A DNA stretch of 64,000 nucleotides from Minisyncoccota bacterium (GTDB taxonomy: Bacteria; Patescibacteriota; Minisyncoccia; Phycocordibacterales; CAJBRS01): NCBI GenBank assembly GCA_035652395.1, contig DASRDX010000012.1:96778-160777 (forward strand), in the 5' to 3' direction. Within the stretch, counting starts at the first letter, position 1. Every line of letters starts with the position of its first letter. A model generated the notes under the pieces. The model made no database searches. It had not been told where the DNA came from and worked only from the letters and a program-made list of their open reading frames with translations. Positions 7,489-61,953 of this stretch are shown here, piece after piece. Position numbers and translations under genes: made by a program.

Positions 7489-7550
7489 TCACCGCAATAT
7501 TGACAATTCCTTTTATTTATGATAGGATATTGGAGAAAGTAATTTCTAAA

Positions 7551-7771
7551 TCGACAATATAAATCTCTCAGCAATTAGCTCCGCAAGGAGCTACTGGTTC
7601 TTCTTAGAGGACACTCTGGTGCCTCTCTCCGAGAACAGCATCTAAGCAAGGAGAATAACCCAACCCTTCCAAAATGATGTTTTTGGAGAGGGGTTGCTGG
7701 TGTTATCCTTACAAGAAGTGCTTAACTTTTGATCACATTGAAAGCATTGCTGAGAGATTTATCTTGTCGAT
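7551..7771. repeat. 221-bp element bounded by 25-bp terminal inverted repeats; candidate structured ncRNA or MITE-like element
   Basis: TCGACAATATAAATCTCTCAGCAAT at 7551-7575 and its reverse complement at 7747-7771 (1 mismatch). The interior holds a GNRA hairpin AGCTCC-GCAA-GGAGCT and a CCAAAA...TTTTGG hairpin. Weaker complementarity extends about 30 nt further out on both sides. Confidence 0.5.
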
Positions 7772-7872
7772 TTTCTATTTTCATCCTATTCAGCTAAAAA
7801 ATAACTGCAAGCTTTTCAGTGGGGAAAAGTTGTGTTCTGGTAAAGTGAGCGGTTAAAAAAGTCATCGGTTTT

Positions 7873-8919
7873 TTGTGTTATGCTTTTGTCATGACAGAAA
7901 GTAAAGCGCCCGCTGGCGAAGAAAAAGTCTTTGTGGAAGATCAGGCCCTTGATCAGACTTTGCGGCCGACGAAATGGGCCGACTATGTTGGACAGGAGCC
8001 AATTAAACAAAATTTAAATATTCTTCTTTCAGCGGCTAAAGAAAGAAATCATCCACCTGAACACGTTTTATTCTACGGTCCGCCCGGTTTGGGCAAGACC
8101 ACTCTAGCGCACCTTATTTCCAAAGAAATTGGCGCCCAAATGAAGATTACTTCCGGCCCGGCCATTGAACGGGTTGGCGATTTGGCTTCCATTCTGACCA
8201 ATCTTTCAGCCGGCGACATTTTATTTATAGATGAAATTCATCGTCTTAATAAGGCGGTGGAGGAAATTCTTTATCCGGCCATGGAGTCGGGAGTTTTGGA
8301 TATTATTATCGGCAAGGGTCCGTCCGCTCGCACCATTCAGCTGGATTTGCCCCAATTCACTTTGATCGCGGCTACTACTCGAATTGCCCTACTCTCTTCC
8401 CCGCTTCGCTCTCGTTTCTCCGGTGGAGTTTTCCGTCTGGAGTTTTATACCGAAAAAGAAATCGAGGAAATTGTTCGACGCTCGGCTAAAATCTTAAAGA
8501 TTGATATTGATGAAGGAGCGATTAAAGAGATTGCCAAGCGCAGTCGCTTTACACCGCGAACCGCCAACTATCTCTTAAAACGCTGTCGCGATTATGCCCA
8601 AATCAAAAAGGTCACTCTTTCCAAAGAGATGGTGCTGGAGGCTCTGAAACTTCTCGGCATTGATGAAGTTGGGCTTTCCAATTCGGACCGACTGCTTCTC
8701 GAAACTATTATTAATAAATTCAGCGGCGGTCCGGTCGGTCTAAATACTTTGGCCGCCTCTCTCTCCGAGGAAGAGGCGACCATCGAAGAATTCAATGAGC
8801 CTTATCTCATTCAAATCGGTTTTTTGGAGAGAACGGCCCGCGGCCGCACAGCCACCCCTCGCGGCTACCAGCATTTAAAAGTTAAGATGCCTGATCACCT
8901 ACAGGAGAAACTCTTGTAG
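7873..8919 (+). CDS. ruvB: Holliday junction branch-migration helicase RuvB
   Basis: 348 aa. Walker A GPPGLGKTTLA and RuvB-type AAA+ layout with a C-terminal winged helix. Confidence 0.9.
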   Translation: MCYAFVMTESKAPAGEEKVFVEDQALDQTLRPTKWADYVGQEPIKQNLNILLSAAKERNHPPEHVLFYGPPGLGKTTLAHLISKEIGAQMKITSGPAIERVGDLASILTNLSAGDILFIDEIHRLNKAVEEILYPAMESGVLDIIIGKGPSARTIQLDLPQFTLIAATTRIALLSSPLRSRFSGGVFRLEFYTEKEIEEIVRRSAKILKIDIDEGAIKEIAKRSRFTPRTANYLLKRCRDYAQIKKVTLSKEMVLEALKLLGIDEVGLSNSDRLLLETIINKFSGGPVGLNTLAASLSEEEATIEEFNEPYLIQIGFLERTARGRTATPRGYQHLKVKMPDHLQEKLL

Positions 8920-22389: not shown

Positions 22390-23440
22390 TTTGGCTACTA
22401 TTGTTTGAGAAGTTAACAATGATATTGGTGGAAGCGGACTGTAAAATACTTGACGGCACAGTGGCCGATACAGAAATCGCGGATTGTCCATTTTGATTAT
22501 CTGGCTTTCGGAAAACTACTTCACTTTGATGAGGATCAAGAGCCATGGCTGAATTATTTAGATACCAAGCATAATTAATAGTCTTATCAGTAGGAGAAGT
22601 GGCACTAAAATAAAATGGAAAAGCGCCAAATGTAACTTCCGAGGCGGTTAAATCGAACTGGCTGTCTAAAATTTTATTAAAAAGAATGCCGTTTAGCGGA
22701 CTGTCTTCATATAAAAGTACTTGAGGATTTTGAGACGCTACACTTATAGCTCCCGAACCACTAATGTTATTTTTTACCAAAGACGCCTCAACACTTACAT
22801 TAATTGGTTGATTCAAAATATCGCCGGTAACAGTCAGGGTTCGTTTACCGTATCCAGATTTGTCTCCAAGTACGGAATTGTTTAGGCGCCATTTATACAC
22901 CAAAGTGTTAGGGTCCACCGTCACCCCATTCGAAACAAAATTAGGGAGAGCAACGAAGGTTAAAGTGCCTTGAGGTGGATAGAGACGTTTCCCTTCATAA
23001 AATGGGGGCACATACGAATTTGCTTCCCAAACAATATCAACGCTGGCCGGACTAATATTTACCGTCTTCGTAATTCTAGTGCCGTTAACCGGTAAAATAA
23101 TAACCTGTACAGCCGAGAGACTGCCTGCCGCGCCAGTTGTAAATTCAAAGGAGGTAGCACCCACGCCGTTTTTTTGAACGACTCCATTTACTAACCAGGA
23201 AATGTCAGCTCTATTTAGATCCGTGCCAAAGGCTTCAAGAGAAAGATTAACTAGTTGACTTGGTGCAGGATTTTCAGGATTAACCTTAATATTTATCTGC
23301 TCCTCAAGCCCAGGAATTAGACTAGGTAAAGAAGGACTATTATAGTCCGTATTCTGGGCGTAGCCAATTGAGAAAAAAGAAAAAAGAAGAATCAGTAGAA
23401 GAGAAAAAGTCAGCCGAGAGTATAAATGACTAAACTTCAT
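22376..23440 (-). CDS. secreted hypothetical protein
   Basis: 354 aa with signal peptide MKFSHLYSRLTFSLLLILLFSFFSIGYAQ. Confidence 0.4.
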   Translation of the reverse strand: MKFSHLYSRLTFSLLLILLFSFFSIGYAQNTDYNSPSLPSLIPGLEEQINIKVNPENPAPSQLVNLSLEAFGTDLNRADISWLVNGVVQKNGVGATSFEFTTGAAGSLSAVQVIILPVNGTRITKTVNISPASVDIVWEANSYVPPFYEGKRLYPPQGTLTFVALPNFVSNGVTVDPNTLVYKWRLNNSVLGDKSGYGKRTLTVTGDILNQPINVSVEASLVKNNISGSGAISVASQNPQVLLYEDSPLNGILFNKILDSQFDLTASEVTFGAFPFYFSATSPTDKTINYAWYLNNSAMALDPHQSEVVFRKPDNQNGQSAISVSATVPSSILQSASTNIIVNFSNNSSQNASF

Positions 23441-23476
23441 TCTCTCAATTATATAATTTTAGACCCTTTTTTACTA

Positions 23477-50406: not shown

Positions 50407-50767
50407 GCAGACTTCTAAGTTATCCCCAGCCTTGTCCTTTACATGTCCTTTAGAAAGCCTTATCATAAAGGACAGATTCTAGCAGCGAACGTTATTAATC
50501 CCTCTTGACGCAAGCTTGCTAAAAGTTCGTTCCACATAAAGGACATTTTGTAAGATATTTTCTCGGTTGAATTCCCAAACAAATTTTTTACCAATTGGCA
50601 GACGAGTGTTTTCTCCGGAAAATTCTCTCCTGCTAAATTACCTCTTGGATTCAAACCCGTGGAAACTTCACTCGATGTCACTTTATGCTTCAAAAGCCGC
50701 ATCGCGCCTTCATCAATAGCCGCCTGCGGCTTTTCTCTTTCTCCTCCTAGGGTTGAGAAAGGAAAGG

Positions 50768-50860
50768 ATAGTCTAACGAATGAAAATAACCTCTCTTTTG
50801 CCGAGAATTTGGTCCTCCAACCTCTCGGAAAAGAGAGGTTATTGAAATAAGTTAGACTAT
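50768..50860. other. roughly 40-bp imperfect long hairpin overlapping the cca stop codon
   Basis: ATAGTCTAAC...ATAACCTCTCTTTTGCCGAGA pairs with TCTCGGAAAAGAGAGGTTAT...GTTAGACTAT. Confidence 0.5.
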
Positions 50861-53703: not shown

Positions 53704-53760
53704 CAATTTTCGTCGACCGGGATTCGAACCCGGAAAACTAACGCCCGGGTCGAATAATTC
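53704..53760 (-). other. tRNA-like fragment: an inverted copy of the tRNA-Pro T-arm
   Basis: CCGGGATTCGAACCCGG is the reverse complement of the tRNA-Pro T-arm; the rest of a cloverleaf is absent. Confidence 0.4.
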
Positions 53761-53839
53761 TATGGTAGCAAGTCTGTAAACTCGAATGTTCGGATAATGT
53801 TACACATTTTCCCGGCGATCAAATCTAAATAAAAACAAA

Positions 53840-53970
53840 CCCCGCAAGACGTCTTGCGGGGGGCTGTAGAAAAGATTGCATTGCCCGGTAGGCTGCCACC
53901 TTATCTTTCTTTGGCTCAAAACGGTCAGGTTGCCATCCGGCCTGTCAAAAGGCCAACCGTGTATAAGCTT
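53840..53970 (-). ncRNA. candidate minus-strand small RNA (promoter to terminator)
   Basis: Perfect 11-bp palindrome CCCCGCAAGAC/GTCTTGCGGGG at 53840-53861 followed on the minus strand by a T-tract; a minus-strand TTGACA (53999-54004) and TATACT (53977-53982) sit 16 nt apart. Confidence 0.3.
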
Positions 53971-54077
53971 GTAAATAGTATACATTATATATTAGGAATG
54001 TCAAGAAATTCTTGTGTTTTATAATTTTTGGTATAGTATTGTTTCTGTTAATTTAGTATTAACTTTTTATTTTTAAC

Positions 54078-59484: not shown

Positions 59485-61017
59485 CTACCTAGCAAACTCT
59501 ACTGCCCGATTTTCCCTAATAACCGTTACCTTAATCTCCCCCGGATATTTCAACTCCTCTTCAATTCGTTTGGCAATATCCTGTGCCATTTTCTGAGCTT
59601 CCAGATCGGAGACCTCGGTCGGAGTAACAAAGATTCGAATCTCACGGCCGGCCTGCAAAGCATAAGATTTCTCCACACCCTTGAAACCGGTGGCAATCGC
59701 TTCCAAATCTCCCAAGCGCTTCAAATAATGTTCCATGGTGTCTCGGCGGGCGCCCGGTCGTCCCCCGGAAATAGAGTCGGCTGTCTGAACAATGATAGAT
59801 TCAATAGTTTCGTAAGGATATTCCTCGTGATGTGCCTGCATGGCCTTAATTACTTCTTCTGGAGCTCCGAATTTCTGGAGAATGCGTCGGCCGATTTCCA
59901 CGTGCGTGCCGGCCACCTCATGATCTACTGCCTTACCAATGTCGTGAAGCAGCGCTCCGGCTTTAGCTACTTGGACATTGGCACCCAATTCTTCCGCCAA
60001 CATGCCGGCAATGTGAGCCATTTCAATTGAATGCTGCAGAACGTTCTGACCGTAACTGGTTCGGAAATACAGGCGTCCCAAAATGGAAACAATTCTCGGA
60101 TCAAGATTGAAAACGCCTGTTTCATAAACTGCGTGCTCTCCTTTTTCCTTGATGATTTTATTTATTTCCTGTTTAGCTTTCTCTACCTCCTTTTCAATTT
60201 TAGCCGGCTGAATACGCCCATCTAAAATAAGATTTTCCAGAGCCAGTCGAGCAATCTGACGACGAACCGGATCGAAGGAAGAGATAGTAATAGAGCCCGG
60301 AGTATCGTCAACGATAATTTCTACTCCCGTTTCTCGCTCGAAAGCCTTGATGTTCCGGCCTTCTTTGCCGATAATCTTTCCCTTAATTTCGTCGGAAGGA
60401 ATGTCAACGTTCGTAGTGAAAAGATCGGCCGAGACGGAAGTAGCCAATCGCTGAATAGTCGTGGATAGAATATCTTTGGCTCGCTGTTCCAGTTTTTCTT
60501 GGCCGAATGTTTCCATCTTCTTCATTCGGGAGAGAATCTCTTCCTCATATTTTTTCTCGACACTCTGGAGAAGTTGCTCTTTAGCTTCTTCCTGTCCAAG
60601 CCGAGAGATTTTTTCCAATTCAGTGCGCTTCTGACTCTCCAAACTATCCACTCTTTCCTTAATCTCTTTTACTTCAGCAATTTTACTCTTAATATTTTCC
60701 ACCTCGTGGTCGATATCGGTCTGGCGAGTATCCAATAGCTCCTCCTTCTTGATTAAGCGGTCCTCAGTCTTCTTTAATTTATCTTCTTTCTCTTTAATTT
60801 CTTCGCGAATCTGCTTTAAAGTGCCCGCCGCTTCTTCTTCGGCGGCCAAAGTAATTCGCTTAGCTTCCTCTTTGGCATCAAGCATCATTTGCTTGATCTG
60901 AAGTTCCATTGAACCTTTTTTCCCCAAAGAAACCAGCACTCGAAGAAAATAACCGACAACTAAAGCCACCACTCCGGTGGAAGCTAGCATTAGAAACAAT
61001 ATTTTTAATGAAATCAT
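59485..61017 (-). CDS. rny: ribonuclease Y
   Basis: 510 aa. N-terminal transmembrane helix, coiled coil, KH domain, HD domain (LLHDIGKAVDHE). Confidence 0.9.
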   Translation of the reverse strand: MISLKILFLMLASTGVVALVVGYFLRVLVSLGKKGSMELQIKQMMLDAKEEAKRITLAAEEEAAGTLKQIREEIKEKEDKLKKTEDRLIKKEELLDTRQTDIDHEVENIKSKIAEVKEIKERVDSLESQKRTELEKISRLGQEEAKEQLLQSVEKKYEEEILSRMKKMETFGQEKLEQRAKDILSTTIQRLATSVSADLFTTNVDIPSDEIKGKIIGKEGRNIKAFERETGVEIIVDDTPGSITISSFDPVRRQIARLALENLILDGRIQPAKIEKEVEKAKQEINKIIKEKGEHAVYETGVFNLDPRIVSILGRLYFRTSYGQNVLQHSIEMAHIAGMLAEELGANVQVAKAGALLHDIGKAVDHEVAGTHVEIGRRILQKFGAPEEVIKAMQAHHEEYPYETIESIIVQTADSISGGRPGARRDTMEHYLKRLGDLEAIATGFKGVEKSYALQAGREIRIFVTPTEVSDLEAQKMAQDIAKRIEEELKYPGEIKVTVIRENRAVEFAR

Positions 61018-61215
61018 GGCGAAATTGATTTCGCCTTAGGCGCCCAAAAAACTTATGAGACTAGATATTCAATTCTTAAGGATTTTAACATTTGAATAAA
61101 AGTGAAGAGTCGGTGCGGAATCAAGGTCATCTGTGGCGGTCTAAAACAAAATCGAAATTTAAATTTTAATGAAATCAATATACATCATTCGTTACAGATT
61201 GTCCACGTAGAGTTG

Positions 61216-61244
61216 TTGACACTGAATATGAAAGATGTTATAAT
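61216..61244 (+). promoter_or_regulatory. consensus sigma70-type promoter TTGACA-17 nt-TATAAT
   Basis: Exact hexamers at 61216-61221 and 61239-61244. Confidence 0.6.
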
Positions 61245-61250
61245 CAATAA

Positions 61251-61380
61251 AACATTCACATTAGAAAAAATGTAGCCGATTACAAACGGGAACCCAGAGG
61301 GAAATGGCAAGTACCGTCAATTCTTCGGTGATGAGGTTCTTTGTATAGAGCCCCTCATATTTTTATGAGGGGCTCTTTGC
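61251..61380 (+). ncRNA. candidate small RNA, about 125 nt, running from the consensus promoter to the intrinsic terminator
   Basis: Ends in AGAGCCCCTCAT-attttt-ATGAGGGGCTCT followed by TTT. No ORF longer than 14 codons. The same hairpin is the clpP terminator on the other strand. Confidence 0.4.
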
Positions 61381-61953
61381 TTAATTCAAAACCTTATCAA
61401 TAATGCCGTATTTCTTGGCTTCCTCGGCGTTCATCCAGAAATTTCGGTCAACGTCCTTTTCAATCTTGCTCAAAGGCTGACCCGTATTTTTAGCCAGCAT
61501 TTTATTTAGAATTTCCCGATTTTTCAGAATTTGTTTGGCCGTAATTTCAATGTCCGAGGCCTGACCTTCCACGCCACCGGACGGCTGATGAATCATGATT
61601 TCGGAATTAGGCAAAGTAAATCGTTTGCCCTTCTTGCCGGCAGATAGAATCATTGCTCCCATGGAAGCGGCTACGCCGACGCAAATCGTAGAGATATCAT
61701 TCTTAACATGATTCATCGTATCAATAATGGCCATACCGGCTGTCACCATGCCACCCGGGGAATTAACATAAAGATTGATATCTTTTTTCGGATCTTCCGA
61801 TTGCAGAAATAAAAGCTGGGCAATAACAATATTAGCCACATTATCATCAATTGGGCCGCCCAAAAAAATAATATTTTCGCGCAAAAGGCGAGAGTAAATA
61901 TCGTAAGCGCGTTCGCCGAATTGGGATTTTTCAATAACTGTTGGAATAAGCAT
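61381..61953 (-). CDS. clpP: ATP-dependent Clp protease proteolytic subunit
   Basis: 190 aa with catalytic Ser (AASMGA) and His (MIHQP). Confidence 0.9.

Follow-up and report, generated by a model that had tools for sequence, protein, structure and literature searches.

The window analysed here is the whole 64-kb stretch of DNA, which belongs to a Paceibacteria (Parcubacteria/Patescibacteria) MAG and matches ENA contig k141_729253 of ERZ27279688 without a difference. Near its end clpP and rny (RNase Y), both assigned by Pfam, follow each other on the minus strand, and the spacer between them carries a promoter that points the other way, toward the 3′ end of clpP. About 100 nt downstream of this promoter, hereafter the orphan promoter, lies a hairpin with the features of an intrinsic terminator. 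The coordinates of the genes and of the predicted elements are collected in Table 1.

Table 1. Genes and predicted features of the clpP–rny region, in window coordinates.
Feature	Position	Strand	Remarks
rny (RNase Y)	59485..61017	-	Pfam; 510 aa
rny 5′ leader	61018..61170	-	alignable with the two closest relatives
rny promoter, TGGACA-17-TATATT	61177..61205	-	back-to-back with the orphan promoter
Lineage-specific segment, 204 nt	61184..61387	.	9 nt at the same place in the sister genome (L166)
41-codon TTG-started hydrophobic ORF	61185..61310	-	antisense to the predicted transcript; without Shine-Dalgarno sequence
-35 hexamer TTGACA of the orphan promoter	61216..61221	+	motif read from the sequence
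Extended -10 TGtTATAAT (TG 61236-61237; TATAAT 61239-61244), 17-nt spacer from the -35	61236..61244	+	
Predicted non-coding transcript, ~130 nt	61251..61380	+	ends inferred from the -10 and the T-rich tail
14-codon ORF, MASTVNSSVMRFFV and stop	61304..61348	+	GAGG 3 nt before the ATG
Intrinsic-terminator hairpin, perfect 13-bp stem, 4-nt loop TTTT	61347..61376	+	~100 nt downstream of the promoter
clpP	61381..61953	-	Pfam; 190 aa
rsmE, next plus-strand gene	from 62065	+	

The orphan promoter matches the consensus at 12 of 12 positions and has the TG extension in addition. When both strands of the 64 kb were scanned for exact TTGACA-N16-18-TATAAT, it was the sole occurrence, and it was also the sole site in the window with at most one mismatch at 17-nt spacing. 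Dinucleotide-preserving shuffles of the window (n = 100) were used to set the chance level: 0.03 exact sites are expected, three of the 100 shuffles having one. With at least 10 of 12 matches the window holds 25 sites, 16 of them intergenic, and many are placed 30–160 nt upstream of genes or a tRNA. This intergenic enrichment and upstream placement indicate that the sigma-70-type consensus is meaningful in the host genome. Perfect hairpins of at least 9 bp are likewise in excess (24, versus 1.75 in shuffles); 13 of the 24 are intergenic at gene ends, where the T-tract is usually on the side of the terminated gene. The host clearly uses canonical sigma-70 promoters and hairpin terminators, and by consensus match the orphan promoter is the strongest predicted sigma-70-type promoter of the window. 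An earlier note on this DNA had singled out an exact TTGACA-17 nt-TATAAT on the plus strand, had called perfect promoters rare in the window and had seen no plus-strand gene downstream. These statements are borne out: the motif is present at 61216–61244, it is unique against the expectation from shuffling, and the next plus-strand gene is rsmE, past the convergent clpP.

The arms of the hairpin, AGAGCCCCTCATA (61347–61359) and TATGAGGGGCTCT (61364–61376), are followed on the plus strand, from 61377, by the T-rich tail TTGCTTAATT. On the minus strand, that of clpP, the tail reads ATACAAAGAA and has no U-tract. Because a T-rich tail is found on the plus strand only, the hairpin is oriented to terminate a plus-strand transcript rather than clpP, and the orientation of the T-tract agrees with that of the promoter. 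Transcription is predicted to start near A61251, 7 nt after the -10, and to end near 61378–61382. The best promoter of the window and a same-strand terminator stand 100 nt apart, and both are of types used elsewhere in the genome; a self-contained, ORF-less transcription unit of ~130 nt running from promoter to terminator is therefore credible.

The roughly 125-nt terminator-capped transcript that the earlier note had placed between rny and clpP was thus a fair reading, the length predicted from promoter and terminator being ~130 nt. Its description of a 12-bp hairpin with a U-tract holds for the terminator and for the T-rich tail on the plus strand, but the stem is 13 bp long. We doubt its further claim that clpP transcripts end at this hairpin as well, since the clpP strand has no U-tract and relatives have no terminator after clpP. 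The note had also given 14 codons for the largest internal reading frame, and the largest ATG ORF wholly inside the predicted transcript is indeed of that length (MASTVNSSVMRFFV, 61304–61348). This ORF is probably not translated: its GAGG is just 3 nt before the ATG, which makes for poor Shine-Dalgarno spacing.

Folding of the predicted RNA together with its hairpin gave z = -4.6 relative to shuffles, and the RNA body (61251–61346, ~95–98 nt) gave z = -0.40, no better than shuffles. We also considered a leader or attenuator (riboswitch, T-box or leader peptide) and found no same-strand gene that it could regulate, the next plus-strand gene lying 821 nt away, past the convergent clpP.

The rny promoter and the orphan promoter stand back-to-back, their -35 boxes 10 bp apart. 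The rny -35 of the window, TGGACA, is 17 nt upstream of a conserved TATATT; this -10 is kept in the sister genome, and many relatives have a promoter of the TAGACA-17-TATAYT type ahead of rny. On the same strand, a hairpin (GGCGAAAT/ATTTCGCC, 61018–61035) abuts the rny start codon, the only AAGG lying upstream of it. This hairpin is retained, with changes, in the two closest relatives, and translation of RNase Y may be controlled through it. The rny start differs between gene callers, giving a protein of 510 aa or of 501 aa.

The age of the unit was read from its relatives, which are annotated as Nomurabacteria or Paceibacterota. Two close ones were found by protein search: GCA_038215155.1 (loci L162/L166; Rny 90.4% and ClpP 93.7% identical) and GCA_017881075.1 (loci L164/L167; Rny 87% identical). 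By the pairwise identities of three proteins (Rny, ClpP and trigger factor), L166 is the sister and L167 the outgroup. Synteny with L166 is kept over 49–64 kb of the window. On one side of the spacer, clpP (window 61955–61388) aligns with L166 9255–9822 at 80%; on the other, the rny leader and gene (window 61183–59491) align with L166 9832–11527 at 77%. Between these two blocks the window has a 204-nt segment in which the orphan unit lies complete, together with the final codon and stop of clpP and the rny promoter's -35. ClpP of the window has one extra C-terminal residue, ending in VLN where relatives end in VL. L167 is also without the segment. In L162 the final codons of clpP include the rny -35 (TAGACA) and no terminator separates the two genes; nor is a hairpin found between clpP and the rny promoter in the relatives. 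Since the segment is missing from both L166 and L167 while the adjoining rny leader aligns, the most parsimonious reading is a single insertion in this lineage after its split from L166.

Two more specific origins were set aside. A MITE or other small mobile element was rejected, as the segment has no terminal inverted repeats, no flanking direct repeats and only a single copy in the window and the loci searched. The possibility that 61184–61207 is a diverged duplicate of the sister's clpP 3′ end was too weak to retain, with 11 of 24 positions matching by hand, mostly in the -35.

Searches for copies and families returned the segment itself or nothing of significance. Searches of spacer and segment by blastn and nhmmer against the window and against 80, then 164 to 167 loci gave self-hits alone, as did blastn of the segment against the extended loci L166 and L167. 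When a covariance model was made from the one sequence and its MFE structure, all it recovered were generic terminator hairpins located after clpP in L033, L015 and L139. Phages and plasmids yielded short chance matches and no more, and viral contigs, scanned for exact 24-mers, yielded none. By these searches the segment is a singleton among 167 related loci and the phages, plasmids and viral contigs searched, the whole-collection DNA scans having covered protein-anchored loci. With Rfam 15 at gathering thresholds, the whole window yielded tRNAs only; a permissive E-value scan of 61000–61500 reached 21–23 bits at best, against thresholds of 47–62, and all of these scores rested on the hairpin. 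The putative orphan RNA belongs to no described RNA family.

Trans targets were sought by pairing the RNA body with 60 start regions in the 64-kb window. No outlier was seen, and 18 of 30 shuffled RNAs did equally well. Of the checks that the earlier note had proposed, the Rfam search found no family for the orphan RNA, target prediction found no signal above shuffles among these start regions, and the comparison with relatives found promoter, body and terminator all absent from the sister, the outgroup and the other loci searched. This last outcome goes beyond the refutation that the note itself had named, a sequence not conserved past the terminator. Its small RNA candidate stands as a promoter–terminator unit without an ORF; a conserved regulator it does not appear to be, given that relatives, Rfam, structure and targets give no signal. 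We regard the unit as a putative orphan RNA gene or a relic, unconserved in either case.

The clpP-then-rny order is widespread, being collinear in 110 fetched loci, and the spacer between the two genes varies from ~0 to >2000 bp, with a median of ~235 bp. In other Paceibacteria the larger spacers hold unrelated small ORFs that are often antisense and driven from a TTGACA promoter standing back-to-back with that of rny. Such cargo is present in L003, L030, L045, L060, L083, L099 and L142, the back-to-back type being exemplified by L003, L030, L045, L060 and L099; the spacer of L007 (3570–4247) carries an RHH antitoxin-like ORF and a ParE-like ORF. The clpP–rny spacer is therefore an insertion hot spot. 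The putative cassette of the window has the arrangement of the cargo in other lineages' spacers, minus the ORF.

A second orphan unit is predicted on the minus strand at ~53830–54004. TTGACA (54004–53999) is followed after 16 nt by TATACT (53982–53977), by ~140 nt without an ORF, and by a hairpin (CCCCGCAAGAC/GTCTTGCGGGG, 53861–53840) with TTTGTTTTTA after it on that strand. Its folding z is -2.9 and it has no Rfam match. It is contained in an insertion (53768–54036) of 269 nt, where the sister genome has 34 nt. No sequence relatedness between this unit and the one in the clpP–rny spacer was found. Nearby, at 53717–53733 on the minus strand, a fragment resembling a tRNA T-arm and acceptor (CCGGGTTCGAATCCCGGTCGACG) adjoins tRNA-Pro on the opposite strand and shows weak matches to the 3′ end of tmRNA; it may be what is left of a tRNA or an integration site.

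Three other regions of the window were noted. The gene-free gap at 50407–50856 is 74% identical to the sister over 325 nt and contains a motif, AGGACATGTAAAGGACA (50433–50449, minus strand), that does not vary between the window, L166 and L167, as well as a 79-aa minus-strand ORF (50463–50702). It has no Rfam match, and is a candidate conserved small gene or non-coding element of no recognised family. The region 22492–23476 spans ~985 bp without an ORF of at least 80 aa; it has promoter-like sites on the minus strand (23448–23419 and 23367–23339) and no Rfam match even at E = 1. A plus-strand TTGACA-17-TAGGAT with TG (7500–7528) lies 345 nt upstream of a gene at 7873, implying a long untranslated leader; the region 7489–7872 has no Rfam match at gathering thresholds.

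Our tentative reading, to which we give a probability of about 0.4, is that segment 61184–61387 is a young, lineage-specific insertion carrying a self-contained non-coding cassette, whose effects would be mainly local. The orphan unit would be transcribed as a ~130-nt RNA, and its main consequence would arise in its immediate surroundings rather than through distant mRNA targets. The predicted unit faces the 3′ end of clpP and points away from the rny promoter behind it. In relatives, with no terminator between the genes, clpP transcription would run straight into the rny promoter. Here, polymerases leaving clpP, if read-through is assumed, would meet both the hairpin and a strong convergent promoter, and any clpP read-through RNA would be fully complementary to a putatively abundant small RNA. 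By collision and antisense pairing the cassette may uncouple rny from clpP read-through, an insulating role suggested by geometry alone.

Nearly as likely as a cassette with local effects is a decaying relic, in which a cargo cassette of promoter, leader, ORF and terminator would have been inserted and then have lost its ORF, so that the unit may still be transcribed but has no use. What is left would be the promoter, a leader with the Shine-Dalgarno-like AGAGGG, the 14-codon stub and the terminator. The same spacer in other lineages has antisense ORFs of 70–186 aa with TTGACA promoters and short leaders, and in the window a Shine-Dalgarno-like GAGG and then an ATG are found 53 nt after the predicted start, the stub ending at the terminator. 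The negative outcome of the searches for conservation, structure and targets, as well as the second, unrelated window-specific insertion with an orphan unit, are also consistent with a relic. However, no significant match came from tblastn and tblastx of the segment against the cargo ORFs that relatives have in this spacer, so this origin lacks protein-level similarity, and neither promoter nor hairpin has lost its perfect form. The tendency of very compact genomes to shed useless DNA also speaks against it, yet a functionless relic that was recently inserted and is still intact would look the same in sequence. A base-pairing small RNA acting in trans, its unstructured 5′ two-thirds pairing with distant mRNAs and altering their translation or decay, is less probable than either and on the whole unlikely. 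The classic anatomy of an independent gene (strong promoter, no ORF, terminator hairpin with U-rich tail) and the long single-stranded 5′ region would suit such an RNA; its absence from the sister and from every further relative searched, the lack of an Rfam family and target duplexes no better than those of many shuffled RNAs argue against it.

Both small ORFs of the segment invite an explanation of their own. Ribosomes on the 14-codon ORF could block formation of the hairpin and so allow antisense read-through across clpP, a switch to which two details lend themselves: the TAG stop (61346–61348) takes in two bases at the start of the terminator stem, and the 5′ arm can be held in an alternative helix, AUGAGG/CCUCAU, as long as the 3′ arm has yet to be synthesised. 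We consider this very improbable, given the poor spacing of the GAGG, an alternative fold no better than shuffles (z = -0.74) and a sequence without conservation among the relatives searched. The other ORF, on the minus strand, would make the locus a type I toxin–antitoxin pair, the plus-strand RNA being the antitoxin, antisense to a 41-aa hydrophobic peptide (61310–61185). The ORF exists, has the hydrophobic core FPFVIGYIFSNVNVLLIITSFIF and is overlapped over its first 20 codons by the strongly promoted antisense RNA, and, like many loci of this type, the segment is an insertion specific to one lineage. Nevertheless, this is the reading to which we give the least credence: the TTG start has no Shine-Dalgarno sequence, the minus strand has no promoter-like site ahead of the ORF, the ORF runs into the rny promoter, and AT-rich sequence is expected to hold ORFs this long by chance. 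The lack of any homologue among 1.84 billion representative proteins weighs weakly in the same direction.

Among known systems, the putative cassette is closest in outline to the orphan small RNA genes of bacteria, with which it shares an intergenic site, a strong sigma-70-type promoter, a length of ~130 nt without an ORF, a GC-rich terminal hairpin with U-rich tail and restriction to one species, the last being common for young small RNAs. It differs from them in that it is known from sequence alone, in an uncultivated patescibacterial host, with no seed or target found and zero homologues. With cis-antisense RNAs and convergent-promoter interference it has in common that it would fire toward the 3′ end of clpP and be complementary to any clpP read-through. 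The genes on either side of the unit run in one direction and adjoin each other in relatives; unlike in those systems, the overlap with a sense transcript is assumed here, and the predicted RNA ends before the clpP coding region. Type I toxin–antitoxin loci of the Sib/Ibs type are likewise short insertions in which a small hydrophobic ORF is faced by an antisense small RNA with a strong promoter, but the ORF of the window is without a ribosome-binding site, promoter or homologues, and there are no repeated copies. For CPR/Patescibacteria, whose regulatory RNAs have hardly been described, a literature search found no description of a small RNA.

A single-genome, unconserved and unstructured candidate of this kind is common among bacterial intergenic insertions and offers no handle on function, and a perfect promoter alone is no sign of a conserved regulator. 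The two unrelated cassettes in 64 kb (61184–61387 and 53768–54036), both missing in the sister, would fit a class of accessory elements in Paceibacteria. As a long shot, cassettes of a promoter, an RNA of ~130 nt and a terminator could form such a class and land in spacers next to housekeeping promoters, and the one described here could be active, tuning rny and clpP or acting as an addiction or defence RNA. If it is transcribed, the unit would offer an example, simple to test, of an RNA gene of very recent origin in a minimal genome, beside the gene for its main RNA-decay nuclease.
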